This document shows, piece by piece, positions 8,612-49,634 of a DNA stretch of 64,000 nt. The notes under the pieces are model-generated. The model had not been told where the DNA came from. It worked only from the letters and a program-made list of their open reading frames with translations, and ran no database searches. The stretch is from Candidatus Rariloculaceae bacterium (GTDB taxonomy: Bacteria; Pseudomonadota; Gammaproteobacteria; Steroidobacterales; Rariloculaceae), in NCBI GenBank assembly GCA_965204155.1, contig OZ241971.1, forward strand, positions 57,593 through 121,592. The letters are read 5' to 3'. Both the position numbers and the translations under genes were made by a program. Position 1 is the stretch's first letter. The number at the start of each line of letters is the position of its first letter.

Positions 8612-8856
8612 GTGAATACTCCCTTGCGCATTGTTTTGTTTTTCAATCGCCACCCATCCTGACGATGGCGACACAGGTGACTCCTTGGCACTTTATCTTA
8701 TCAATCTCACTAAGCGCCGATCCTCTGAAAGGAGCGGCAAATGGCTGAGTTTTTTGTAAAACTCCATGAATTTTGCGGTCGGGAAACGGCAGCGCCAGCG
8801 CGCCATAGGGCATAATCCTGACCTAAAAATCTGAAGGGCTCTTGAGGGATTCGATA

Positions 8857-10353
8857 ATGAAGCAACAACTTTTTTGGGGACCTCTTGTAGTGACGCTCCT
8901 TGCGGCGAACGCGGGTATCGCCCAAGAGCGGCCCAATATCGCCCTGATTCTGTCGGACGATCAGGGATGGTACGGGCTCTCCGTGCAGATGCACCCGGAC
9001 CTGCCCAACTCGAAAAGCGACTTCTTTCACACGCCCCGGCTGGAGGAGCTGGCCAGTCAGGGCATGCGCTTCTCCGACGCCTACTCGCCATCGCCGGCCT
9101 GCTCGCCGACCCGGCTGAGCATTCAGAATGGCATGAACCCGGCCACGAATCGCATGACCAAGGCCGAGCCCATCGCCACGGCGTTTAACAATTTTCCGTT
9201 GCTTCCGCCGAACCATCCGTATCCGATCGCGATCGACAGGGAATACACCACCGTCGGCGAGGTCCTGCAGGCGGCCGGTTACCGCACCGCGCACTACGGC
9301 AAGTGGCACCTCGGCGGTAACGAACCGCCCGAAGCCCACGGCTACGACGAGTCCGACGGGCCGGCCGGCAACGAGCTTGCCTGGGAGTGGGATGACCCGG
9401 ACAACCCGCTGGACATCATCGGCATGCCCGGGAAGGCGCTCGACTTCATACGGCGGGCCAACGAGGCCGGCCAGCCGGCGTTCGTGCAGCTTTCCGCTCT
9501 CGGGCTGCACGGTGCGGAGCACGCGTCAGCAGAAGCCGTCGCCCGGGCCCAGGCGCGCCCCAGGGGCGAAATGCACGGTAGTGTTCGCAGTGCAGCGGTC
9601 ACTGAAGATCTCGACACCAGTGTCGGCATCTTCATGGACGGCCTCGACGAACTCGGCCTGAGCGACAACACCTACGTCATCTACATGGGCGACAACGGGC
9701 ACGTGCGCCAGCAAAACGCCATGCCCAGCAACCACCCGGACAGCCCCGCTCCGCTGATGGGCGACAAGGGCAACCTCTCCGAAGGCGGCATTCGCGTGCC
9801 CTTCATCATCCGCGGGCCGGGCATCGAGGCCAACGCCTGGTCGAGCGTGCCGATCGTCGGCTTCGACCTCTTCCCGACCTTCGCGGAGTGGGCCGAGGTC
9901 GACCCGGCCGAACTGCCTGCCGGCCTCGAAGGCGGCAGCTTCGCTGCGGTGCTTGAGAATGGCGGAGTGGGTGAGGTTCAGCGCCCACGCGAGGGGCTGG
10001 TATTTCATTTCCCCCATTACCAGTCGGGAACGCCCCAGTCGGCCATTCGTGTCGGCGATTACAAGCTGATCAAGTATTATGAAGGCAACTGGACGGTGCT
10101 GTTCGACCTCGCCAACGATATCGGTGAGCGCAACAACCTGGCGATGCAGATGCCGGAGAAGGCGGCGGAGTTGGAAGCCACGCTGGACGAGTACCTGGCA
10201 TCGGTGAATGCGGACCTTCCGGCCATCAACCAGGACTACGATCCGACCCAGCCGACAGGCTTCCCCGGCCGCCGGAGAAGGGGGGCGGACCCGAATGTCA
10301 TCGTTCCCTACGACACCACCCATGACCCGGAGAGTTTTTACTTTGGGGAGTGA
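8857..10353 (+). CDS. Secreted sulfatase family protein
   Basis: RPNIALILSDDQG, CSPTR, GKWHLG, GDNG, KGNLSEGGIRVP, LFDLANDIGE. Confidence 0.92.
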   Translation: MKQQLFWGPLVVTLLAANAGIAQERPNIALILSDDQGWYGLSVQMHPDLPNSKSDFFHTPRLEELASQGMRFSDAYSPSPACSPTRLSIQNGMNPATNRMTKAEPIATAFNNFPLLPPNHPYPIAIDREYTTVGEVLQAAGYRTAHYGKWHLGGNEPPEAHGYDESDGPAGNELAWEWDDPDNPLDIIGMPGKALDFIRRANEAGQPAFVQLSALGLHGAEHASAEAVARAQARPRGEMHGSVRSAAVTEDLDTSVGIFMDGLDELGLSDNTYVIYMGDNGHVRQQNAMPSNHPDSPAPLMGDKGNLSEGGIRVPFIIRGPGIEANAWSSVPIVGFDLFPTFAEWAEVDPAELPAGLEGGSFAAVLENGGVGEVQRPREGLVFHFPHYQSGTPQSAIRVGDYKLIKYYEGNWTVLFDLANDIGERNNLAMQMPEKAAELEATLDEYLASVNADLPAINQDYDPTQPTGFPGRRRRGADPNVIVPYDTTHDPESFYFGE

Positions 10354-10457: not shown

Positions 10458-11273
10458 ATGAAAACCACAAGTTGGCTTGGCAAAGGGTTGCCGGTTGCAG
10501 CGGTTGCGCTGGTTGCCCTGACTTCGGCAGGGTCGGCGCATGCGCATCACAGCACCGCCATCTTCGACCAGAGCAAGGAGTTTTCGATCGAGGGCACCGT
10601 GGTTGAATTCGTTCAGCAAAATCCTCACGCACGGCTTGACGTTGAGGCGGCGGGCCCGGATGGGGAGGTGCATGTCTACACGCTGGACTTTGGCAATGGC
10701 GACCGAATTCTCGATACCTACGGTCTGGACGAGAACAGCTTTCAACCCGGAGACCGGATCAGCGTCACCGGTGCGCCATCGCGCTTCGAGAACGACACGC
10801 GAATGCTCGTTTCCAGCATGACGTTACCGGATGGCCGATTCGCCGATGGCGGCTCGCATTCCGGCCCGCGTCAGGGTGAAGGCCGGCGCACCGGCCCGCC
10901 CTGGGCAGTCGACCTGGACATCACGCTGCCTGTAGTCGAAGTCAACGGAGTCGTGACATCTCTCGACTGGGCAGACCCCGAAATCACCATGTTGATTACC
11001 GGCACGCATCAGGGCAGCGATGAAGTCGCCGTGTACGAAGTGCGCGCCGCCGGAGCGACCTCTCTTTACGAACGACAGAACTTTACCCCCGAGGACTTCC
11101 CCATCGGCGGCGAAGTCAGCGCCAGCGGTTATTTCATTCCGGAGCGGGGAAACCTCATCTTCCCGCACAACATATGGACGGATACGCGTGACCTCTACAA
11201 CCAGGTTCACGCAATCAACAACGCCAGGGAGCATCTCGGCTGGCCGCCGAAGGAGTTTGACCGGCCGCGATGA
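10458..11273 (+). CDS. Secreted tandem (double) DUF6152-like protein
   Basis: AHA-HHSTAIFD, NPHARL, then a second degenerate repeat (WADP...YEV...DFPIGGEV...IFP). Confidence 0.72.
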   Translation: MKTTSWLGKGLPVAAVALVALTSAGSAHAHHSTAIFDQSKEFSIEGTVVEFVQQNPHARLDVEAAGPDGEVHVYTLDFGNGDRILDTYGLDENSFQPGDRISVTGAPSRFENDTRMLVSSMTLPDGRFADGGSHSGPRQGEGRRTGPPWAVDLDITLPVVEVNGVVTSLDWADPEITMLITGTHQGSDEVAVYEVRAAGATSLYERQNFTPEDFPIGGEVSASGYFIPERGNLIFPHNIWTDTRDLYNQVHAINNAREHLGWPPKEFDRPR

Positions 11274-30093: not shown

Positions 30094-30111
30094 ATCGGGT
30101 TGGAGCAGGGC

Positions 30112-31134
30112 ATGCGCGCGCTTCAGGTCAGCCTCTTGTCGGTAGCCTCGTTCGCGACCTTCTGCGCGTCAGCGCACCACAGCAACTATCAGTTCGACAC
30201 GGACACCGTCGTGACACTCGAAGGCACCGTGACGGGATTCGAGTGGAAGAATCCGCATATCTTCTTCAACATTGACACGACCGACGAGAACGGCGACCGC
30301 GTGAACTACCAGGTGGAAGGCGACGGCGTGGGAATGTCGGCGCCGCTGGGCTGGACAAGGGATGCGCTCGCGATTGGCGACCGCATCACCGTGGAGGCCA
30401 GCCCGCCCACCGATCCCCGGCGACGCTCCCTGCTCGGCCGAGGCGTGGTGAAGGCGGACGGCACGATCCTGCCGATGAACTCGGAGTTTCACTCCGGCTA
30501 TCCGGAACCGACCGTGGAGATCGGCGCGGCGACGGATATCTCGGGGCGCTGGCTCCCGCGTATAGAGGACTTCTACGCCGGCCTTCCGAACGGGGCCTCG
30601 CATCCGCTGACCGAGCGGGGGCGGGTCGCTGCCGAGGCGTTCAACCCACGGGAAAACCCGCAGTACGACTGTGTTCAGCACGCGGCGCCGCGGATCATGC
30701 TCTACCCGGCGATCAACGCCATCGAAACTCACGAGGACAGAATCACCCTTCGGCCGGACTGGTCGAACATCGAGCGGGTGGTCTGGATGGACGGGCGCAG
30801 CCACCCGGGCGGCGGCGAGCGAACGCCCCAGGGACATTCCATCGGTCACTGGGAGGGCGAGACGCTAGTGGTCGATACGGCGCTATTCTCTGCGCATCCC
30901 GCGAGCAGCCTTCGGCGGCTCCCGGTGCCATCGAGCGAGGAGAAGCATCTCGTGGAGCGCTTCACGCTTGCCGAAGGTGCAACAAGGTTGATGTACGAAA
31001 TCCTGGTGGAGGATCCTGTCTACTTGGCGGAGCCTGTGACTCAGACCCACGAGTGGGACTACCGGCCCGACATCGTGCCGGGAGAAATGGACTGCGACCT
31101 GGACTCCGCCCGGCGCCATTTGATTGACCGATGA
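30112..31134 (+). CDS. Secreted DUF6152-like + partner domain
   Basis: ASA-HHSNYQFD, WKNPH; NPQYDC, GHSIGHWEGETLVV, DPVYL, MDC. Confidence 0.82.
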   Translation: MRALQVSLLSVASFATFCASAHHSNYQFDTDTVVTLEGTVTGFEWKNPHIFFNIDTTDENGDRVNYQVEGDGVGMSAPLGWTRDALAIGDRITVEASPPTDPRRRSLLGRGVVKADGTILPMNSEFHSGYPEPTVEIGAATDISGRWLPRIEDFYAGLPNGASHPLTERGRVAAEAFNPRENPQYDCVQHAAPRIMLYPAINAIETHEDRITLRPDWSNIERVVWMDGRSHPGGGERTPQGHSIGHWEGETLVVDTALFSAHPASSLRRLPVPSSEEKHLVERFTLAEGATRLMYEILVEDPVYLAEPVTQTHEWDYRPDIVPGEMDCDLDSARRHLIDR

Positions 31135-31958
31135 CTACCATGGCTGTATTTCGACGCCTCGGATTCATGCTCATCGCGCTGGCCTGCGTGCCGGTGCTGT
31201 TTTCGCTGCGGGTCCTGGCCCACCACAGCCTGACCGTATTCGACAGGGACACGGAAGTCTCCATGGACGGCACCGTGGTCGAGTGGTACCTCGGCATGCC
31301 GCACGCTCATTTGAAGATCGAGACCACCGACGCGAACGGGCAAGCGACCGTCTACCAGCTCGATTTCGGCAATACCCCCCGCATGGTCGAGGACAACAAC
31401 TGGGACGAGAGCAGTTTTCAGCCAGGCGATCGGGTCAGCGTGACCGGCTCGCCCTCACGCCTCAGCAACGATTCACGGTTGCTGGTGGCAAGCCTCCGCC
31501 TGCCCGACGGTGAAGTTGCGACGCTTGCCTTCGCGCTCGAAGCTCCGCCTGCCTCTGAAGAGGTTGGTGGCGCGGGCGAAGGCGATGCCGTTGCCCGATT
31601 CACGGCCGGACTTCCGATGGAGCGTATCACCCTGCCGAGAATCACCTTTTCCGGAGAGATTACAGCCGCAAGCTGGACCGATACGAGCGTGACGATGACG
31701 GTCAGAGGCACGGAGGAAGGCGGGACGGAGCAGGAATACCGGCTGCAATATGTCGGAGCGCCGCTGCTTCATGAAGCCCAGGGTGCGCACGAGGACAATT
31801 TTCCGGTCGGTACGGCCGTTCGTGTCACAGGCTTCATCGACCGCGGGGAAGGCAATATCGTGTTTCCGGAAAATCTCCATGCGGGCGAGAAGACCATCGG
31901 CAATCGAATACGTGCGGCGCGCGCCGCCCTGCAGCATCTCGGGGTTATAGAACCCTGA
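31131..31958 (+). CDS. Secreted tandem DUF6152-like protein
   Basis: VLA-HHSLTVFD, GMPHAHL, second degenerate repeat; ATGA overlap with the upstream gene. Confidence 0.75.
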   Translation: MTTMAVFRRLGFMLIALACVPVLFSLRVLAHHSLTVFDRDTEVSMDGTVVEWYLGMPHAHLKIETTDANGQATVYQLDFGNTPRMVEDNNWDESSFQPGDRVSVTGSPSRLSNDSRLLVASLRLPDGEVATLAFALEAPPASEEVGGAGEGDAVARFTAGLPMERITLPRITFSGEITAASWTDTSVTMTVRGTEEGGTEQEYRLQYVGAPLLHEAQGAHEDNFPVGTAVRVTGFIDRGEGNIVFPENLHAGEKTIGNRIRAARAALQHLGVIEP

Positions 31959-31970
31959 CGAACAAGGTTC

Positions 31971-33068
31971 ATGTTCATGAAATGCACAGCCGGAATCTTT
32001 CCAGCCATTGCAACGCTGATGGCATCCCCGCTTGCAAACGCACATCACTCGTTTGCGGCGGAATTCGACAGAAACGATCCAGGGCAACTGGAAGGCGTCA
32101 TTACCGGCGTCAACTGGAGCAATCCCCACGTCAGCTACGAACTTGACATCGTCAACGATCAGGGTGAGACGGAATCCTGGGAAGTACAGACATTCCCGAC
32201 CGGCGGTCTGATCGGAAGGGGTTGGAACAGGGACACCCTGCCTGTCGGGAGTCGGGTCACGGTTTCCGGTTCCAGGGGCAGGAACTTCACGAAAAAACTG
32301 TATCTCGATCTCGATACTGTTGAGCTCTTCGATGGCGGCACATGGCGCCCCGTGGGCGGAAGCCTGGCGGCCGATGCGAATCTGGCAAACGCAGATGCCG
32401 GAGACGTGGACTTTGGCGGACAGCCAAACGAGTACCCGGCCGACATCACCGGCGCCTGGAACAACAGACACAACTTCAGAGTGACTGTCGACGATCTCAC
32501 CCCCAAACCGACCCCATTCACGGACGAGGGACGCGCGGTGTACGAAGCCACCGAGGAGTGGCAGGACGTGTACAAGTTTTGCGTACCGAACCTGCCCCGC
32601 CTGTTCGGTTCGCCGCGACGTATGGAAATTGTCGATGCCGGCGACTACTACCTGATGGTTTTCGGCGCTAGGGATATCGCCCGCCGCATATTCATGGACG
32701 GGCGGACGCCGGTGGCGCCCGATCACTTGTCGACGCTAGGGCACTCGAATGGCCGTTGGGAGGGCGACACGTTCATTGTCGAGACGACCAACCTGCTGCC
32801 GGGCTGGCTTGACGGCTCGGGATTGCCCATGTCCGGCGGGGACGGTACGCGACTGGTGGAAACCTACAACATCAGTGAAGACGGGTTGACGATCGACCGC
32901 GAAATGGTCATTCACGACGACTATTACACCGAGCCCCTGACGCGCCGGCGCGGATCCATTCGCGGAGATGTCCCGCTGTACCAGGATCTGCCCTGCAATC
33001 CTGTGCCGTTCATCGAAGATCTGGCGGAACGGGGATTGCTCGACGACGCTCTGAGGATGCATCAATAG
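31971..33068 (+). CDS. Secreted DUF6152-like + partner domain
   Basis: ANA-HHSFAAEFD, WSNPH; KFCVP, GHSNGRWEGDTFIV, PCNP. Confidence 0.85.
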   Translation: MFMKCTAGIFPAIATLMASPLANAHHSFAAEFDRNDPGQLEGVITGVNWSNPHVSYELDIVNDQGETESWEVQTFPTGGLIGRGWNRDTLPVGSRVTVSGSRGRNFTKKLYLDLDTVELFDGGTWRPVGGSLAADANLANADAGDVDFGGQPNEYPADITGAWNNRHNFRVTVDDLTPKPTPFTDEGRAVYEATEEWQDVYKFCVPNLPRLFGSPRRMEIVDAGDYYLMVFGARDIARRIFMDGRTPVAPDHLSTLGHSNGRWEGDTFIVETTNLLPGWLDGSGLPMSGGDGTRLVETYNISEDGLTIDREMVIHDDYYTEPLTRRRGSIRGDVPLYQDLPCNPVPFIEDLAERGLLDDALRMHQ

Positions 33069-38758: not shown

Positions 38759-39865
38759 ATGAAATGCAAGCCGATTCTCATTGCTCTCGCACTGGCCGCA
38801 TGGTTGCCGGCGGGACTCGCGCACCACTCGACGGCGGTCGATTTCGAAAAGGGCACCGAGATTGCGATCGAAGGCGTCATCACGCACACCGAGTTCGTCA
38901 ACCCGCATACGCGGTTCTATGTGGACGTAACGGGCGATGACGGAACCGTCGAGAACTGGCAGATCGAGACGCGCCCGGCACGCAACCTCGCAAACAGCGG
39001 TGTCACGCCGGATACCGTGAAAATGGGGACCCTCGTGCGTGCGGAGGGCGAGCCGAGCCGGCGTGGCCAGCGGTCCATGTGGTTGACCGGTCTCACCATC
39101 GAGGACGGGCCGCGCATTGCGTTCATCGACGCGGACGGCGGAAATGCGGGCGGCGGACAACAACAGGCCGGGCGGCGGCCTCCCGTCCTGCCGGCCGATT
39201 GGACGACGTTCTCCGAGATCGGGGCTGAGTATTCAAACGACGCGCCCTTCGATATCAGCGGAGGATGGAGCGGACGCTACAGATTCACGGTAACGGTCGA
39301 CGACCTTGAACCCAAGCCGGTACCCGCGACGGACGAGGCGCTGCGCCTGCGCGCGGAGAACCAGGTGTTCGGCACGGACGACGCATTGCGCTGTATCGGT
39401 GTCGGCCTGCCGCGGTTGTTCGGCAGTCCGGGCAACATGGAGATCTACGACCAGGGGCCGTTCTACCTGTTCGTCTATGTCAGCGGGGTCAGGCGTGTTT
39501 ACATGGACGGCCGCCAGGCGCCCGACGACTGGCCGCTGAGCATGTTGGGCTACTCGACGGGGCGCTGGGAGGGCGAATCGCTCGTCATCGAAACCACGCA
39601 CCTGAAACCCATGTGGCTCGATGGCAGCGGCTGGCCGATGTCCGGCGCCGAGACGCGCACTGTCGAGACGTATACGCCGTCGAACGATGGCGCAACCCTG
39701 GAAAGGACAATGACCATCCATGATCCGCTCTACACGGAACCGCTCGTACGCACCCGCGGCTTCGCTCGCAGTAATGACGCGTTGCGCGAGGGAATCTGCG
39801 ATCCGCAGGGGTTTTACCGCGACCTGCTGAACGAGGGTCTGATCGAGGATTATCTCGCGCTGTAA
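38759..39865 (+). CDS. Secreted DUF6152-like + partner domain
   Basis: GLA-HHSTAVDF, FVNPH, WQIE; DDALRC, GYSTGRWEGESLV, GICDP. Confidence 0.85.
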   Translation: MKCKPILIALALAAWLPAGLAHHSTAVDFEKGTEIAIEGVITHTEFVNPHTRFYVDVTGDDGTVENWQIETRPARNLANSGVTPDTVKMGTLVRAEGEPSRRGQRSMWLTGLTIEDGPRIAFIDADGGNAGGGQQQAGRRPPVLPADWTTFSEIGAEYSNDAPFDISGGWSGRYRFTVTVDDLEPKPVPATDEALRLRAENQVFGTDDALRCIGVGLPRLFGSPGNMEIYDQGPFYLFVYVSGVRRVYMDGRQAPDDWPLSMLGYSTGRWEGESLVIETTHLKPMWLDGSGWPMSGAETRTVETYTPSNDGATLERTMTIHDPLYTEPLVRTRGFARSNDALREGICDPQGFYRDLLNEGLIEDYLAL

Positions 39866-39922: not shown

Positions 39923-41068
39923 ATGAAATACAAGCCAATTCTCATTGCTTTCGTATTGGCCACATGGTTGCCGACAACACTCGCGCACCACAGCCGTTCG
40001 ATGTTCGACAGCGACACGCGAATCTCGGTGACGGGCGAGGTGACGCGAGTCGACTTCGTCAATCCCCACGTGTTCATCTACGTGGAAGGCGTCACTGAAA
40101 GCGGCGAGGTCGAGGAGTGGGGATTCGAGCTGCATTCGCCGAGCCACATGAACTTCAACGGATGGAAGACGGATACGCTGGAGGTTGGCGACCCGGTGGT
40201 TGCGTCCGGGAACCCGCCTCGCTCGGGCGCACGAAGGATCGCCGGAGGCGCGTCATTCACCCTGGCGAATGGAGAAGTCATCACCGCCGACAGAGGCCCG
40301 GACGCAGCCCCGGCCCGGGCTGCCGCGGAAGCCCCAACGGTATCCGAAGGCCGGGGCGGGCCGGCCGCGGGTGGACCTGGCAGGGACATGTCGGCCGGAG
40401 CGACGCCCAACGACGGGTGGAACGGCCTCTACCAGGTCGCTCCGCCCGATGGGATCTTCGGGCCGCCCGGGATACTGTATGAGCGGCCCTCCCGGGACGT
40501 TCGTGCGGAGTTTGCCGGGCTGTCCGGGCAATCCACTCGTTTCGTGCCCGTATTGAATGAGAAGGGAATGGCCGCCGGCCGGGCGTTCGGCAGCGATGCA
40601 TCGGACAGGCCCTGGTGCTCTCCGGACCCCTATCTTTTCGCGCATCATGAGAATTCCTACGTCGTGCAGATCGATCGCGGCCCGGAGCAGTTCGTTCTTC
40701 GCCGGGACGGCCATGAGCTGGTCGTTCATATCGACGGCGAGCATCCCCCGGCTGACGAACTCTTCACCTGGGGTTACGCGGTCGGGCAATGGGAGGGCGA
40801 GGTCCTGACCGTGGATGTCAGGAACTACGAACCCAATCCCTGGGGACTGGCGCGCGGGCTTCCGTCGGGTGCTCAGAAGCGCGTCACGCATGTTTTCCGC
40901 TGGCGCGAGGACCGAACGGCGCTGGATGTCGACACGACGATGTTCGATCCCGAGTACATGACCGCGCCGTTCACGATCGAGACGAGCTTCTTCCACAAGG
41001 AATACCTGGAGCTTTCTCCACCGATCGCGTGCCTTGAGCAAACCTATGAAGCGATACCGGCGGAATAA
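39923..41068 (+). CDS. Secreted DUF6152-like + partner domain (close paralog of 1808-2938)
   Basis: TLA-HHSRSMFD, FVNPHV, WGFE; long near-identical blocks with 1808-2938. Confidence 0.85.
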   Translation: MKYKPILIAFVLATWLPTTLAHHSRSMFDSDTRISVTGEVTRVDFVNPHVFIYVEGVTESGEVEEWGFELHSPSHMNFNGWKTDTLEVGDPVVASGNPPRSGARRIAGGASFTLANGEVITADRGPDAAPARAAAEAPTVSEGRGGPAAGGPGRDMSAGATPNDGWNGLYQVAPPDGIFGPPGILYERPSRDVRAEFAGLSGQSTRFVPVLNEKGMAAGRAFGSDASDRPWCSPDPYLFAHHENSYVVQIDRGPEQFVLRRDGHELVVHIDGEHPPADELFTWGYAVGQWEGEVLTVDVRNYEPNPWGLARGLPSGAQKRVTHVFRWREDRTALDVDTTMFDPEYMTAPFTIETSFFHKEYLELSPPIACLEQTYEAIPAE

Positions 41069-41098: not shown

Positions 41099-41920
41099 AT
41101 GAAAAATCCTGTGGCTGTCTGCCTGTTGCTGGCTATGGCGGCGCCGGTCTCGTACGCGCATCACAGTCTCGCGATCTACAACGAAAACGAGCTGGTGTCG
41201 GTGACCGGCAACGTGGTCGAGTGGTTCCGGGGAAGGCCGCACTCGTACCTCAGGATAGAAGGGAGGGACGAGTTCGGGAACGAGAACACCTGGTATCTCG
41301 ACTTCGGCAGCACGAGCCGGCTCGTCAACACCAATGAATGGGACGATTCGACCTTCGACATCGGCGATGAGCTTTCCGTGATCGGCTTCCCGTCCCGTCT
41401 CAAGGACACCGACATCCTGGTGGAAAGCATGGTGGCGCCGTTCGGCAGCTTCGGCATGACCGAATCCTATTTCGGCGATCCCGATGACGCCGGGCCGATA
41501 CCGGAGTGGATAACGCTCCCCGCGATCGAGCTGTCGGGCACGATTGCCAGATCGGAATGGACAGGCTCCAGTGTCACGGTATGGGTACGCGGCTCGGTCG
41601 ACGGTGAAGCCGAGCGCGACTACGAGGTTCGCTTGTCCGCACCGGCATCGCTCTACGACATCCTTGCGATCTCCGAAGATCATGTTGCCCCGGGAAATGC
41701 AGCGAGAGTCGACGGCTACCTGGCTGATGAGGGTGAGCGGCTGATCGTCTTTCCCCGAATAGTGGACTTCGGCGACAGGGGACCGGTGAGAACGGCGATG
41801 ATGACCCAGAGAGCGGTTGCAGCGTACCTGGGCGTGGAAGTCCAGGGCCGGCGAGGCCCACCGGCCGGAATGGGCGGAGTGGATCGCGGCGGAGCGGGAA
41901 GTAACGAGGAAACGCCATGA
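41099..41920 (+). CDS. Secreted tandem DUF6152-like protein with Gly-rich tail
   Basis: SYA-HHSLAIY, GRPHSYL, ERDYEV second repeat. Confidence 0.78.
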   Translation: MKNPVAVCLLLAMAAPVSYAHHSLAIYNENELVSVTGNVVEWFRGRPHSYLRIEGRDEFGNENTWYLDFGSTSRLVNTNEWDDSTFDIGDELSVIGFPSRLKDTDILVESMVAPFGSFGMTESYFGDPDDAGPIPEWITLPAIELSGTIARSEWTGSSVTVWVRGSVDGEAERDYEVRLSAPASLYDILAISEDHVAPGNAARVDGYLADEGERLIVFPRIVDFGDRGPVRTAMMTQRAVAAYLGVEVQGRRGPPAGMGGVDRGGAGSNEETP

Positions 41921-42768
41921 AATACCAATCCATCGTATTCGGGCCGATGCTGGCCGTACTGATGCCGATTGCTGACGCGCATCACAGCACGACGATTTTT
42001 GACCAGGCGCAGACCGTCTCCTTCACCGGTACGGTGGTGGAGTGGTATTCGGGCCGGCCCCACGCCTATCTCAGGGTTCTTGCAACCGACGAATCGGGTG
42101 CGGAAACAACCTACACGCTCGAGTGGGGCGGCGTCAGCGCAATGGTTCGCGAGAACGACTGGGACGATTCGACCTTCGCTTTGGGCGATACGGTCAGTGT
42201 CACGGGCTTTCCGTCCCGGGTGCGCGACGGCGATATCCTGGTTGAGACCATGGACACCAATTTCGGCGCCTTCGCCATAGACGAACCCTACAGCTCGGAG
42301 GTCACTGCCGAGTCGCGCTTCGCCCCGCCGCCGGCGGGGATGGATTTGCCGGTTATCAAGATTACCGGCGTCGCGACCGGTGCCGACTGGCAGGATTCCG
42401 ATAACGCGATCGGTCACGTACGGGGCGCGGTGGAGGGCGAGGCCGAACGCGACTACCAGATCCACCTCGGCGATGCGACGTTCGCCTACGAGAACTTCTA
42501 CCTCAAGGAGGCGGATTTCGCACCGGGCACGCCGGTCATTGCGGAAGGCTTTCTGGCAGAGGAAGACACGCGTTTGATCCTGTTCCCGCGCTACATGGGT
42601 ATCGGCGACCAGCCGCCGTCACGACTGGGCCAGATTGGAAACATCATGGCGTCGCAGTATGTCGGCCTGGAATTCAGGTTTGAAGGTGGTGGCGGTCGCG
42701 GCGGAAACGCAGGCGGGCGTCCCGGCGGCGCTGGCGGGATGGCGCGCGGAGATGGCGCTGACGAGTAA
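41917..42768 (+). CDS. Secreted tandem DUF6152-like protein with Gly-rich tail
   Basis: ADA-HHSTTIFD, GRPHAYL, ERDYQI; ATGA overlap with the upstream gene. Confidence 0.78.
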   Translation: MKYQSIVFGPMLAVLMPIADAHHSTTIFDQAQTVSFTGTVVEWYSGRPHAYLRVLATDESGAETTYTLEWGGVSAMVRENDWDDSTFALGDTVSVTGFPSRVRDGDILVETMDTNFGAFAIDEPYSSEVTAESRFAPPPAGMDLPVIKITGVATGADWQDSDNAIGHVRGAVEGEAERDYQIHLGDATFAYENFYLKEADFAPGTPVIAEGFLAEEDTRLILFPRYMGIGDQPPSRLGQIGNIMASQYVGLEFRFEGGGGRGGNAGGRPGGAGGMARGDGADE

Positions 42769-42781
42769 TGGGGGATTACCG

Positions 42782-43612
42782 ATGGGTACGAAATTTCTGG
42801 CGGGCGGACTTGTCATGGCGTTGGGTGCTTCGCTTGCGTTCGCACATCACAGCCCGGCGCTTTATTTCAGAGACCAGATGGTGTCCGTGTCGGGTGTTGT
42901 GACCGAATGGCACTCGGGCCGCCCGCACGCCTACCTCGAGTTCGCCGGAACCGATGAGTCCGGCAACGAGAAGACGTACCGGATCGATTTCGGCGGTGGC
43001 AGTCTCATGGTGCGCGAAAACGAATGGGACGAGTCGACCTTCAGTCCGGGCGACGAGATCAGCGTGACAGGCAACCCGCCGCGCAGGGGCGATAACGAAA
43101 TCCTGATCAATACACTCGTCACCGATTTTGGACGGTTTACGCAGAGCAGGCCACACGGCGTACGGGCAGATCCGGCGGGTGGGCAAGCGCTGGGCCGTGG
43201 GCTGCCGATCATCGGGATCGACGCCACCGTAACGAGGGCGGACTGGAGTGAACCCAACGTCGTGCTATACGTGCGCGGCGGGGCCGATGGCGAGGCGGAA
43301 CGCGATTACGAGGTACTGCTGAGCGACCCGCCGATGTTGCTGGAGTTTGCGTATTTCACCGCCGACGACGCTGCGCCGGGTACGCCGGTTTCCGTGGACG
43401 GTTTTCTCGTGGAAGACGGTGATCGTGCGATCATTGTTCCGAATGATCTCGATCTCGGGGACCGCGGGCCGATCATCTATTCGCGATTCGTTCCGGGCCT
43501 GATTGCCGTGGCTCTCGGCGAGGAAGCCCCGGCGGGCGGCATGGGCCGCGCTCCGGGCGGCGAAGGCCCGGCAGGCGGCATGGGCCGCTTTGGCGGCGGT
43601 GGCGCCCAGTAG
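42782..43612 (+). CDS. Secreted tandem DUF6152-like protein with Gly/Met-rich tail
   Basis: AFA-HHSPALYF, GRPHAYL, ERDYEV; tail AGGMGR x2. Confidence 0.78.
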   Translation: MGTKFLAGGLVMALGASLAFAHHSPALYFRDQMVSVSGVVTEWHSGRPHAYLEFAGTDESGNEKTYRIDFGGGSLMVRENEWDESTFSPGDEISVTGNPPRRGDNEILINTLVTDFGRFTQSRPHGVRADPAGGQALGRGLPIIGIDATVTRADWSEPNVVLYVRGGADGEAERDYEVLLSDPPMLLEFAYFTADDAAPGTPVSVDGFLVEDGDRAIIVPNDLDLGDRGPIIYSRFVPGLIAVALGEEAPAGGMGRAPGGEGPAGGMGRFGGGGAQ

Positions 43613-43830
43613 GGACCGCATCAGGTCGAGTTCGCCGGGCCGATTGCCGCGGTAACCAGTACGAACGGCTCGCGGGCGCACAAGTAACGTTGATCGGGCA
43701 CCGAGCGGGCACTGGAACGGGTTCCGGTACGCGCGCTGGAACGAGTTTCGTTACGCACTCCGGGACAGGTGCCGGTGCGGGGTCTGGGGTATCATTGACC
43801 AGTACCTCTATCTCCGAACAGGTGGTTGCC

Positions 43831-44250
43831 ATGACTAATGTTTTTCGTAGCGGTTCTCCGTTGCCGTTCCTGACGGCCCTCTTTCTCTTGCTTATTTCCA
43901 CTTTCGCCTGGGCGCATCACGGCTGGACAGGCTATACCAGCGACATAGAAACGACCGTGGTGGTGACCGAACTCCATTTGGGCGCCGCGCATGACCAGTT
44001 GGTCGCAACCGACAGCGAAGGTCAGACCTGGGACCTGGTGCTGGCAACGCCCAATCGGAACCGTCGCCTGGGGTTTGACGAAAACACGCTGTCGGTGGGT
44101 GACGAGATCGATATTCTGGGCCGACTGCACCCTGCCAGGCCGGAAATCAAGGTGCACTGCATCTACATGAACGGCGAAACGACCTATACCTATTACGACT
44201 TCGACGGCACGACCAGCCTCTCCAAGCACAGCGACAGAGATCAGTGCTAG
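43831..44250 (+). CDS. Secreted stand-alone divergent DUF6152-like protein
   Basis: AWA-HHGWTGY, GAAHDQL in place of NPH, GFDENTLSVGDEI. Confidence 0.72.
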   Translation: MTNVFRSGSPLPFLTALFLLLISTFAWAHHGWTGYTSDIETTVVVTELHLGAAHDQLVATDSEGQTWDLVLATPNRNRRLGFDENTLSVGDEIDILGRLHPARPEIKVHCIYMNGETTYTYYDFDGTTSLSKHSDRDQC

Positions 44251-44490
44251 CTGAATAGACCTGGCGGAACCGCAGCCTGAACAACGGCTGCGGTACCGAT
44301 TCGATTGACTTCACAACAAAGCCGGCCGCGAAATTTGCCGAACCGGTACGAGAACCTTATGGTCCCGGACGGCGCCCCGCCGGGCATACTCAGTTGCTGA
44401 CGAAGAATGCGCGTCCTTTCGCAGATTTCGAAAGGGGATGTTGCGTACACTGGGAACCGCAACAGAAAGTCAGCGTTGCAGGGAGATCCC

Positions 44491-45414
44491 ATGGTTACCC
44501 GAGAACTCTTGACAGCTTCTCTCTTGATGGCCCTTATGCCCGTCACGGTCGCTCATCACAGTACGGCGATCTATGACAAGGATACGCAAGTATCCGCGTC
44601 GGGTACCGTAACCGACTGGTTCACGGGCCGGCCGCATTATGCGCTCACCTTCGTCGGTTCCGACGAGTTCGGCAACGAACAGACCTATGTACTGGATTTC
44701 GGCGGCATCAGCTCGTTGCCTCGTGAAAACAATTGGGACGATTCGACGTTTCAGGCGGGTGACCGGGTCAGCGTGGTTGGCAATCCTTCGCAACTGCGCA
44801 ACGACAACCGCATCCTGGTCGAGTCCCTCGGCACCGAATTCGGCGAGTATTCCGTCCAGCCGCGGGAGCCGACCAACGGGACCGGACCGCCGTTCTTCGT
44901 GCCCATCCCCGAGGAGATCGCGCTGCCTACGATCGAGATGCTCGCCATGCCGACAGGATGGGATTGGGCGGACCCGGCGGTCATTGTCAACGTGCACGGC
45001 GACGCGGAGGGCCAGCCGCCACGCGACTACGAAGTTCACCTGCCCGGCGCGACGGCGCTGCTCGAGGAGCATGATTTCAGCGAGGACGATTTGCAGGAGG
45101 ATGCGAACCTCATCGTCGCGGGCTTCCTGGTCGAAGAAGGCGGCCGCGCGATGGTCTTTCCGGCGATGTTCGGAATCCTGGGACAGCGGGGCCTGCGATT
45201 TCCCTACCACGGGCTGCAGATCGCCCACGACTACCTGGGCCTCGAATATACGCCTCCCGAGCGCGACGCACGGGCAACCGGGCGCCCGGGGCCGCCCGGT
45301 GGAGTCCGAGGCGCTGCCGGCCGAGAGCCTGGTGGCGCTGGAGGCCCTGGAGGCCGCGGGCCGGGTGGCGCTGGAGATGCCCGAGGCGAGGGCGAGGACC
45401 CCGAAGGCGAGTGA
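44491..45414 (+). CDS. Secreted tandem DUF6152-like protein with Gly/Pro/Arg-rich tail
   Basis: TVA-HHSTAIYD, GRPHYAL, PRDYEV; GGGAG RBS. Confidence 0.78.
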   Translation: MVTRELLTASLLMALMPVTVAHHSTAIYDKDTQVSASGTVTDWFTGRPHYALTFVGSDEFGNEQTYVLDFGGISSLPRENNWDDSTFQAGDRVSVVGNPSQLRNDNRILVESLGTEFGEYSVQPREPTNGTGPPFFVPIPEEIALPTIEMLAMPTGWDWADPAVIVNVHGDAEGQPPRDYEVHLPGATALLEEHDFSEDDLQEDANLIVAGFLVEEGGRAMVFPAMFGILGQRGLRFPYHGLQIAHDYLGLEYTPPERDARATGRPGPPGGVRGAAGREPGGAGGPGGRGPGGAGDARGEGEDPEGE

Positions 45415-48755: not shown

Positions 48756-49634
48756 ATGGCGGGTAAGCGGCACAGTCGATCCGAAATCGAGGGATTGCTG
48801 AAGAAGGCGGCCCGGCTCCAGGCCGGCGGGAAACGCGTCGTCGATGTCGCCGACAGGCTCGGCGTATCGAAACAGACGTTGTTTCGCTGGCGGCGAGAGT
48901 TCGGAGACGAGGTCAACGGGCTGGGCGTTCCCCAGCGGACGACTCGCAAGACGATTCTCGATACGGCGGAGCGATTGCTGGCCGAGGAAGGCATGGCCGT
49001 TTCGCTGCGGCGCATCATGGCCAAGGCAAACGTCAATATCGCCGCCATCCACTATCATTTCGGTGACCGTCAGGCATTGATCGATGCCCTGGTGGATCGA
49101 AGGCTCGGGACCATCAACGGCGCGCGTCTCAAGCGTTTGGCGGAAGCAAGGGAGAAATCCGATCCGGCCGGAATCGAGGACCTGGTACAGGCGTTCATGG
49201 GGCCCAGCGTGGAGGCGAGCCTGAGTGCGGACCCCGGTTGGCAGCACTTTTCTCGGTTTCTCGTCTGGCTGGTGAACGATCCGCAAACGACTTCCCGGAC
49301 CTTGCTCAAGAACGTCTACGGCGAGCTGCACCCCCGTTTCCAGGCTGCATTCCGCAAACGGAAGCCAGATTTATCGGAGACGGATTTTCACTGGCGATAC
49401 CACTCGATGATCGCGATCATGGCCGCAGCCGGCCATAATCGGGATCGCCTGATTCGACTGTCAGGGGGAGAGTGCGGTAACGAGGACTATTCGGCGACCA
49501 TGGCCGCGCTGACGCCCATTGCGGTCGCGATCTGGACCGCGCCTCCATCGAACGCCGGCGTCGAGCATGTCACCGTAGGCATCGAATCTCTCGATGCCGC
49601 TGCTGTTTCAACCGTGAACTACACGATGGGATAA
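48756..49634 (+). CDS. TetR/AcrR (PsrA-like) regulator with N-terminal IS3-family transposase OrfA-like HTH
   Basis: aa 1-50 KRHSRSEI..LL......G..V..VA.RLGVSKQTLFRWRREFG. aa ~60-110 TRKTILDTAERLLAEEG..SLRRI...ANVNIAAIHYHFG. Confidence 0.85.
   Translation: MAGKRHSRSEIEGLLKKAARLQAGGKRVVDVADRLGVSKQTLFRWRREFGDEVNGLGVPQRTTRKTILDTAERLLAEEGMAVSLRRIMAKANVNIAAIHYHFGDRQALIDALVDRRLGTINGARLKRLAEAREKSDPAGIEDLVQAFMGPSVEASLSADPGWQHFSRFLVWLVNDPQTTSRTLLKNVYGELHPRFQAAFRKRKPDLSETDFHWRYHSMIAIMAAAGHNRDRLIRLSGGECGNEDYSATMAALTPIAVAIWTAPPSNAGVEHVTVGIESLDAAAVSTVNYTMG

Follow-up and report, generated by a model that had tools for sequence, protein, structure and literature searches.

The question raised by the locus studied here is what the second half of a set of unusual DUF6152 proteins is, and what it contributes to them. 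The window (the whole 64,000-nucleotide stretch analysed, from contig OZ241971.1) belongs to the 5.03 Mb metagenome-assembled genome (MAG) of an uncultured marine Candidatus Rariloculaceae bacterium (Gammaproteobacteria), and it contains six genes whose products begin with a DUF6152 domain (PF19649) and continue into a further half. The original prediction, made from the DNA sequence and its open reading frames (ORFs), held that this second half is a degenerate DUF6152-like repeat that has lost the histidine motifs. Our results bear this out: the second half (C-half) is a true but degenerate DUF6152 repeat, homologous to the first half (N-half) and sharing its oligonucleotide/oligosaccharide-binding (OB) fold, and we therefore call these proteins doubles. 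A profile of the 15 DUF6152 domains located in the window matched the six C-halves at 40, 26, 23, 11, 11 and 8.6 bits, the best match being that of gene F (g31131). The hhalign comparison of the six N-halves with the six C-halves gave a probability of 94.5% (E = 7e-8, 76 columns), and the C-half profile aligned to the 84 stand-alone and 121 fused DUF6152 domains of the genome at 97.8% and 98.0%, respectively (E ~1e-13). When all 26,286 stop-to-stop ORFs of the genome were searched with the C-half profile, the six doubles were found at 137-154 bits, and all of the remaining matches (29/29) were canonical DUF6152 domains, with DUF6152 ORFs accounting for only 0.8% of the ORFs. Long multi-stretch matches of this profile to the sequences P0018-P0031, which are cadherin-like and other repeat proteins, were discarded as noise.

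The ORF list places all six doubles on the + strand, starting at 41099, 41917, 42782 and 44491 (genes A to D), 10458 (gene E) and 31131 (gene F). Genes A to D form one co-directional run (41099-45414) that includes a stand-alone DUF6152 copy at 43831-44250 (Pfam, 28.1 bits), as had been proposed. The GC content at third codon positions (~0.70-0.75) marks the six genes as coding, and each proposed ATG has a Shine-Dalgarno-like motif 5' of it; because of this motif, translation was taken to start at 42782 and 44491 and not at 42635 and 44407, where longer ORFs begin. A Sec-type signal peptide, ending in A-x-A right before His-His-Ser, was predicted in all six proteins, which align over their full length with 32-43% identity to gene A (g41099). 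Pfam DUF6152 covers the N-half of every double at 47.7-88.6 bits (gathering cut-off, 27 bits) and reports a second stretch only for gene E (g10458) and gene F; an NCBIfam scan of the six doubles returned no match. The mature doubles, of ~245-285 residues, are soluble and strongly acidic (isoelectric point of both OB domains 4.1-4.8 in five of the six, and 5.5 for the C-half of gene F; net charge -4 to -16), and they contain zero cysteines and as few as four histidines.

We then compared the motifs of the two halves in an alignment of 211 DUF6152 domains of the genome, comprising 205 canonical domains and the N-halves of the six doubles. The results showed that His1, His2 and His28 (mature numbering) are invariant (211/211) and that Pro27 is kept in 210/211, with Pro-His present in all six doubles. 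The residue before Pro-His is Asn in 176 of the 205 canonical domains, whereas the doubles have Arg (4), Met (1) or Asn (1); the aromatic residue at position 45 is Trp in 194/205 canonical domains versus Tyr in five doubles and Trp in one; the acid at position 48 is Glu in 171/205 versus Asp in five doubles and Glu in one; and positions 49-50 of the doubles are Phe/Trp-Gly. The shift from NPH to GRPH, predicted for four doubles, was found in exactly the four run genes, while gene F has G-M-P-H and gene E has Q-N-P-H. The predicted [Y/W]xx[D/E][F/W]G motif also exists, but it had been ascribed to four doubles and is carried by all six. In the C-halves, His1, His2 and His28 are all lost, the position of His28 being taken by Ser, Asn, Ala or Glu, so that only the first half keeps the histidines, in line with the prediction. 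The C-halves retain the equivalents of the structural residues Gly17, Tyr45, Gly69 and Gly76, and three of them keep a vestige at the G-R-P-H position in the form of [D/E]-P-x after an invariant Trp (W-x-[D/E]-P-x).

The predicted structure places both halves in the same fold. We modelled mature gene C (g42782) without its tail (42845-43525) with AlphaFold2 from a 25-sequence alignment, and its C-half alone from an 18-sequence alignment. The two-domain chain gave a predicted local distance difference test score (pLDDT) of 85.4 and a predicted template-modelling score (pTM) of 0.72, and the isolated C-half a pLDDT of 90.7 and a pTM of 0.86. In the model, the N-half consists of strands 13-23, 30-37 and 42-48, helix 54-58 and strands 71-77 and 85-93, and the C-half of strands 122-134, 139-146 and 153-159, helix 162-169 and strands 181-191 and 194-203, followed by a conserved C-terminal helix (213-223). 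The OB order b1-b2-b3-helix-b4-b5 thus occurs twice, offset by ~109-110 residues, which is also the register of the hhalign alignment; the Pro-His motif sits in the b1-b2 loop and the aromatic-x-x-acid motif on b3. Foldseek against the PDB returned two-OB chains as the best matches of the full model over ~210 columns, namely the single-stranded DNA-binding protein (SSB) of Thermus aquaticus (2fxq, E = 1e-6), Teb1-AB, HIN-200 and POT1, with TM-scores of 0.26-0.31 and a different domain orientation (root-mean-square deviation 14-18 Å). The C-half alone matched generic OB folds, including RPA32, Stn1, the LysRS anticodon-binding domain, SSB and PriB (TM-scores 0.45-0.56), and a profile search against PDB sequences gave no match to any chain. 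Structural dissimilarity of the two halves had been named as the result that would speak against a repeat; what we found was a repeated strand and helix register, with both halves matched by Foldseek to tandem-OB proteins.

From these features we consider it probable, at roughly 60%, that the doubles are Sec-exported two-OB proteins in which a His-bearing first OB domain is joined to a His-less second OB domain serving as a fixed partner lobe. Cleavage of the signal peptide would leave a mature N-terminus of His1-His2-Ser on the first OB domain, and the N-terminal amine together with His1, His2, His28 and Asp48 would form a putative metal centre, by analogy with secreted His1 proteins. The His-less second OB domain would pack on the first, fill the place of the ~250-residue partner domain of the fused paralogs, and provide a scaffold or substrate-facing surface rather than chemistry. 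Such doubles would work in the periplasm alongside the fused-type proteins encoded by the same, partly translationally coupled operons. Other families that combine a signal peptide with His1 proved to be metalloproteins once tested, DUF6152 not being among them (PMC12537917). Several points weigh against this proposal. That the second OB domain stands where the fused paralogs have their partner domain is a likeness of position that does not imply equal roles, the "pseudo-dimer" of the original prediction is a hypothesis drawn by analogy, the AlphaFold2 models rest on shallow alignments (25 and 18 sequences), and a literature search returned no paper on DUF6152 or Rariloculus.

The relation between the two OB domains could also be looser: the second would be an autonomous ligand-binding (specificity) module on a flexible linker, in no fixed arrangement with the first, like the carbohydrate-binding module of a lytic polysaccharide monooxygenase (LPMO). 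In favour of such an arrangement, residues 106-112 of the linker are predicted to be disordered (pLDDT <50), the inter-OB linker varies from 16 to 34 aa among the doubles, and a divergent double on a metagenome contig (L019) has a Gly/Met-rich insert at this place. The C-half folds confidently when modelled alone, and its invariant Trp (W134 of mature gene C) opens the L12 loop and lies on the face by which OB folds classically bind their ligands. However, the full-chain pTM of 0.72 is above expectation for two freely jointed domains of equal size, and this score suggests a defined packing of the two OB domains in the model; moreover, no known ligand-binding motif was found, and the structural neighbours are generic OB folds (TM-scores 0.45-0.56). 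We therefore regard a freely tethered second domain as unlikely, although it retains an appreciable chance.

The genes around the doubles bear on the nature of the conserved histidines. The window holds eight sulfatase genes, two TonB-dependent receptors, a major facilitator superfamily transporter, a flavin adenine dinucleotide (FAD)-dependent aromatic-ring hydroxylase, a gene of the fumarylacetoacetate-hydrolase family and a TetR regulator. The doubles are co-directional with fused-type DUF6152 genes. The start of gene B overlaps the stop of gene A (ATGA) at 41917; the start of gene F likewise overlaps the stop of the fused-type gene 30100-31134 (ATGA at 31131), with the fused-type gene 31971-33068 coming next; and gene E lies downstream of the sulfatase gene 8842-10353. 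The two fused-type genes directly upstream of the run occur in the same fused-fused order in the related genomes L013, L014 and L016. This setting among sulfatases, TonB-dependent receptors and aromatic-catabolism genes, together with 212 DUF6152 paralogs in the genome, a number far beyond the needs of metal homeostasis, would fit periplasmic binding or chaperone proteins for organic (sulfated, aromatic) substrates, in which the His-His...Pro-His residues are no metal site and instead serve ligand contact or acid-base chemistry. Against this, His1, His2 and His28 are invariant in 211/211 domains while nearly all else varies, as is typical of a metal or catalytic centre, and the signal-peptide-plus-His1 families tested so far are metalloproteins (PMC12537917). 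We consider such a role improbable.

A bolder proposal, which we regard as doubtful and rate lower still, makes each double an active/dead OB pair in a single chain. Here the N-terminal-His metal centre would need a second lobe, either an OB domain or the barrel partner, to complete a substrate pocket, the Gly/Met-rich segment would be a flexible arm capturing a metal or a partner, and the proteins would be periplasmic metalloproteins of a new class, with sulfated or aromatic compounds as their substrates. If this were true, the doubles would reveal the working of the whole DUF6152 superfamily and be its smallest self-contained tractable member.

Selection on the two halves was assessed as the ratio of nonsynonymous to synonymous substitution rates (dN/dS, Nei-Gojobori) between the window genes and their orthologues in the related MAGs L013, L016 and L017. 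The N-halves gave ratios of 0.11-0.49, the C-halves 0.05-0.34 and most tails 0.44 to >1; in the comparison with L017, the two halves of gene A stood at 0.37 (N-half) and 0.28 (C-half), and the C-half of gene B at 0.05. Because constraint on the C-half is thus no weaker than on the N-half, we take the C-half to be functional rather than decaying. A functionless relic of duplication or fusion might be suspected from the loss of all family motifs and from the lack of a second Pfam DUF6152 stretch in four of the six doubles, but it is highly improbable given these low ratios, the full-length conservation of the C-half among divergent homologues (26-55% identity), and its high-confidence fold (pLDDT 90.7). 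SSB-like binding of extracellular or periplasmic DNA, which two OB folds, Gly-rich tails with an often acidic tip and the best Foldseek match to T. aquaticus SSB might evoke, is the least probable of all and was rejected on the Sec signal peptides of all six doubles and the acidic isoelectric points of both OB domains, the TM-scores of 0.26-0.31 and the lack of sequence similarity to SSB being further points against it.

The phylogeny indicates how the doubles arose. In a maximum-likelihood tree of the 211 N-domains and the six C-halves (Shimodaira-Hasegawa-like support), the N-halves of the six doubles separated from the fused type and all other copies as an exclusive clade (support 0.96), and the C-halves formed a clade of their own (0.74), with broadly congruent branching of gene E, then gene F, then the four run genes. 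Therefore, the two-domain gene arose once and was then copied whole. Gene order was compared in related genomes: L013 and L014 agree with the window in having two fused genes, then three doubles and then the stand-alone copy, and L013 adds a fourth double; L015 is without the double of the gene C type; and in L017 the types of genes A, B and F stand side by side and are followed by a fused gene of the 31971 type, which indicates that the window's two arrays derive from a single one. The exclusive clade and the adjacency of three types in L017 agree with the earlier proposal of expansion by local duplication. These results indicate that the architecture has a single origin within one genus of Ca. 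Rariloculaceae and spread by whole-gene tandem duplication inside DUF6152 arrays. In both the tree and the hhalign comparisons, the C-half does not lie nearer its own N-half than the DUF6152 family at large, so that fusion of two neighbouring paralogs is as possible an origin as internal duplication.

The distribution of the doubles is equally narrow. The 212 DUF6152 ORFs of the genome represent an extreme expansion and comprise ~84 stand-alone proteins (mature length 80-180 aa), ~120 fused proteins (300-400 aa, with the ~250-aa partner domain) and exactly six doubles (240-290 aa), all six of which lie within 35 kb, inside the window. The architecture was also sought in other taxa. With a score above 70 bits taken as the mark of a true double, a survey of 85 genomes of the family found doubles in 6 of the 17 genomes that belong to the same genus and in 0 of 13 other genera, and none of 400 genomes drawn across Gammaproteobacteria had one (0/400). 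When the C-half profile was run with HMMER exhaustively against 1.84 billion cluster representatives, only 10 reached E <1e-10, nine of them being proteins of 270-345 aa with the module at ~140-270. The divergent doubles P0013-P0016 also lie within DUF6152 arrays, and the arrays of the loci L018 and L019 read fused-double-fused-fused and double-double-fused, respectively. These results show that the doubles are a real, narrowly distributed, lineage-restricted architectural variant of the very large, uncharacterised DUF6152 family. The tenth representative (P0017, metagenome) appears to be a short chimera of 131 aa and of the gene E type, in which the C-half, reduced to b3-b5 and the C-terminal helix, directly follows a signal peptide, HHS and b1 of the N-half; a deletion between the two repeats could have produced it, or it may be an assembly artefact.

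Low-complexity tails had been predicted for the doubles as a group. They were found in the four run genes, while genes E and F are tail-less. Among the 212 paralogs, Gly-rich C-terminal tails (26-54 aa) occur only in these four genes, and they often end in acidic residues. Gly/Met/Arg/Pro segments such as GGMG, GMGMG and GGRGG are present in 11-18 of the 120 fused paralogs, always as a linker right after the OB domain, and we therefore read the tail as the post-OB linker module of the family turned terminal. In the divergent double L019:1988-2827, the Gly/Met-rich segment GGGMGGGGMGAGGRGGGG lies between the two OB domains and not at the C-terminus. Tail length varies among orthologues, and the gene C ortholog P0002 differs in repeat content. 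The tails are weakly constrained and grow by tandem-repeat slippage. Met makes up 6.3% of the Gly-rich segments of DUF6152 proteins versus 1.8% of those of other proteins of the genome (Fisher P = 2e-6, with residues that are not independent). A role of the tails as Met-rich Cu(I)-binding motifs was kept as a lead only, since five of the 11 tails examined have no Met and similar segments occur in other proteins, including a sulfatase. Gly-Met-rich segments such as GRGGMGAMGAGAAEAGGMGAGG were observed in this sulfatase (339-1751, - strand) and in about a dozen other coding ORFs, and GGM-type low complexity is a wider feature of the proteins of this organism.

Table 1. Coordinates of the double-DUF6152 genes, their parts and associated features in the window.
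Feature	Position	Strand	Description	Evidence
Gene A, double-DUF6152	41099..41920	+	273 aa	ORF and Shine-Dalgarno motif; Pfam 60.2 bits; C-half profile 153.9 bits
Gene A, signal peptide	41099-41158	+		
Gene A, N-OB	41159-41458	+	HHS...GRPH...WYLDFG	
Gene A, linker	41459-41506	+	acidic	
Gene A, C-OB and C-terminal helix	41507-41839	+		
Gene A, tail	41840-41917	+	Gly/Arg/Pro	
Gene B, double-DUF6152	41917..42768	+	283 aa	Pfam 58.3 bits; C-half profile 149.7 bits
Gene B, signal peptide	41917-41979	+		
Gene B, N-OB	41980-42279	+		
Gene B, linker	42280-42336	+		
Gene B, C-OB	42337-42675	+		
Gene B, tail	42676-42765	+		
Gene C, double-DUF6152	42782..43612	+	276 aa	Pfam 69.9 bits
Gene C, signal peptide	42782-42844	+		
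Gene C, N-OB	42845-43144	+		
Gene C, linker	43145-43192	+		
Gene C, C-OB	43193-43525	+		
Gene C, tail	43526-43609	+	Gly/Met	
Tandem DNA repeat, gene C tail	43511..43588	+	39 nt x 2; encodes Gly/Met tail	Tandem Repeats Finder score 114, 84% matches
Gene D, double-DUF6152	44491..45414	+	307 aa	Pfam 47.7 bits; C-half profile 149.5 bits
Gene D, signal peptide	44491-44553	+		
Gene D, N-OB	44554-44853	+		
Gene D, linker	44854-44913	+		
Gene D, C-OB	44914-45249	+		
Gene D, tail	45250-45411	+	54 aa; Gly/Arg/Pro with acidic end	
Tandem DNA repeat, gene D tail	45308..45376	+	33 nt x 2.1; encodes part of the tail	Tandem Repeats Finder score 96
Gene E, double-DUF6152	10458..11273	+	271 aa; QNPH; tail-less	Pfam 88.6 bits, two stretches; C-half profile 137.5 bits
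Gene F, double-DUF6152	31131..31958	+	275 aa; GMPH; tail-less	Pfam 72.5 bits, two stretches; C-half profile 136.8 bits
Fused-type DUF6152 gene	38759-39865	+	OB + ~250-aa partner; directly upstream of run	Pfam 65.1 bits
Fused-type DUF6152 gene	39923-41068	+	OB + ~250-aa partner; directly upstream of run	Pfam 84 bits
Atypical stand-alone DUF6152	43831..44250	+	139 aa; HHGW; GAAH for NPH; Val for the acid	Pfam 28.1 bits (cut-off 27)

The atypical stand-alone copy inside the run has the sole Ala at Pro27 among the 211 DUF6152 copies, and it is kept at the same place in four related genomes (L013, L014, L015 and L017). The 218-nt spacer that separates it from gene C (43612-43830) contains a terminator-like hairpin at 43721-43742 (GTTCCGGTACGCGCGCTGGAAC followed by GAGTTTCGTT) and imperfect GGAACG repeats, and it may divide transcription units inside the run. 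A subgroup of stand-alone DUF6152 proteins encoded outside the window (genome contig C1 at ~3.96-3.99 Mb, 5.007 Mb and 1.722 Mb) shares a conserved C-terminal motif with two Cys and extra His, C..L.DG..GC..G[FY][VL]TP[ML]HGD.ARGHG[VI]E..W[ND], which may be a second metal site or a disulfide site. The gene for the TetR-family regulator that adjoins the run lies at 48756-49634; its longest ORF matches a transposase-type helix-turn-helix domain (PF01527, residues 4-62) before TetR_N, which could reflect a mis-set start or an unusual fusion. At the locus L018, an arylsulfotransferase gene (ASST, PF05935; L018:1-705) stands directly ahead of the DUF6152 array that contains a divergent double, an arrangement that echoes the sulfatase-rich context of the window.

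DUF6152 is a large, uncharacterised family of exported bacterial proteins, and its invariant N-terminal His-His suggests that the OB fold bears a metal site not described before. As the doubles show, a His-less copy of the same domain can take the partner position, and they represent a clear, datable case in which a domain was duplicated and one copy then lost the motif while selection continued. At ~250 residues, cysteine-free, soluble, acidic and confidently folded in silico, they are a convenient model for expression, metal analysis and crystallography. Their restriction to one genus of uncultured bacteria limits their general importance.

Compared with canonical DUF6152 proteins, the doubles have the same signal peptide, His-His-Ser start, Pro-His, aromatic-x-x-acid motif and OB fold, and they are encoded in the same arrays. 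They differ in carrying a His-less second OB domain where canonical proteins have either the ~250-aa partner (120 paralogs) or nothing (84 paralogs), in the shifts of Asn to Arg before Pro-His, Trp to Tyr and Glu to Asp with the added Phe-Gly, and in the terminal Gly-rich tails of four of the six. The secreted His1 metalloproteins, namely LPMO and CopC with their histidine brace, DUF4198 (Ni), DUF6702 and the anglerases, resemble the doubles in being cleaved before a conserved His with a second His downstream (PMC12537917). Unlike the beta-sandwich or cupredoxin-like proteins of that group, the doubles have two consecutive N-terminal histidines and a metal site that is putative; the immunoglobulin-like or cupredoxin-like beta-sandwich that characterises histidine-brace proteins is replaced in them by an OB fold.

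Among periplasmic OB proteins, CusF is a single-domain Cu(I)/Ag(I) metallochaperone that binds its metal at an internal His/Met/Met/Trp site, with no part played by the N-terminus. It shares with the doubles the small periplasmic OB-fold design, whereas the metal site of the doubles is only putative; CusF was absent from the top 50 Foldseek matches of the full model and of the C-half, and no alignment to CusF was made. Structurally, the isolated C-half comes closest to RPA32/RPA14 and Stn1/Ten1, which likewise have an OB fold followed by a C-terminal helix but are eukaryotic DNA-metabolism proteins with TM-scores of 0.45-0.53 and no sequence relationship to the C-half. In the RPA32/RPA14 and Stn1/Ten1 complexes, the C-terminal helix mediates OB-OB pairing. 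The SSBs of Thermus and Deinococcus are the classic example of a dimer of single-OB subunits that has given way to one chain with two fused OB folds, and they carry a flexible tail with an acidic tip. These tandem-OB chains (Deinococcus-Thermus SSB 2fxq and 2ihf, Teb1-AB/RPA70-AB, HIN-200 and POT1) have two OB folds per polypeptide, as do the doubles, but they are cytoplasmic or nuclear, basic, DNA-binding proteins that have neither a signal peptide nor the His motif and show no sequence similarity to the doubles. The resemblance of the doubles to tandem-OB SSBs is one of architectural analogy and not of membership.

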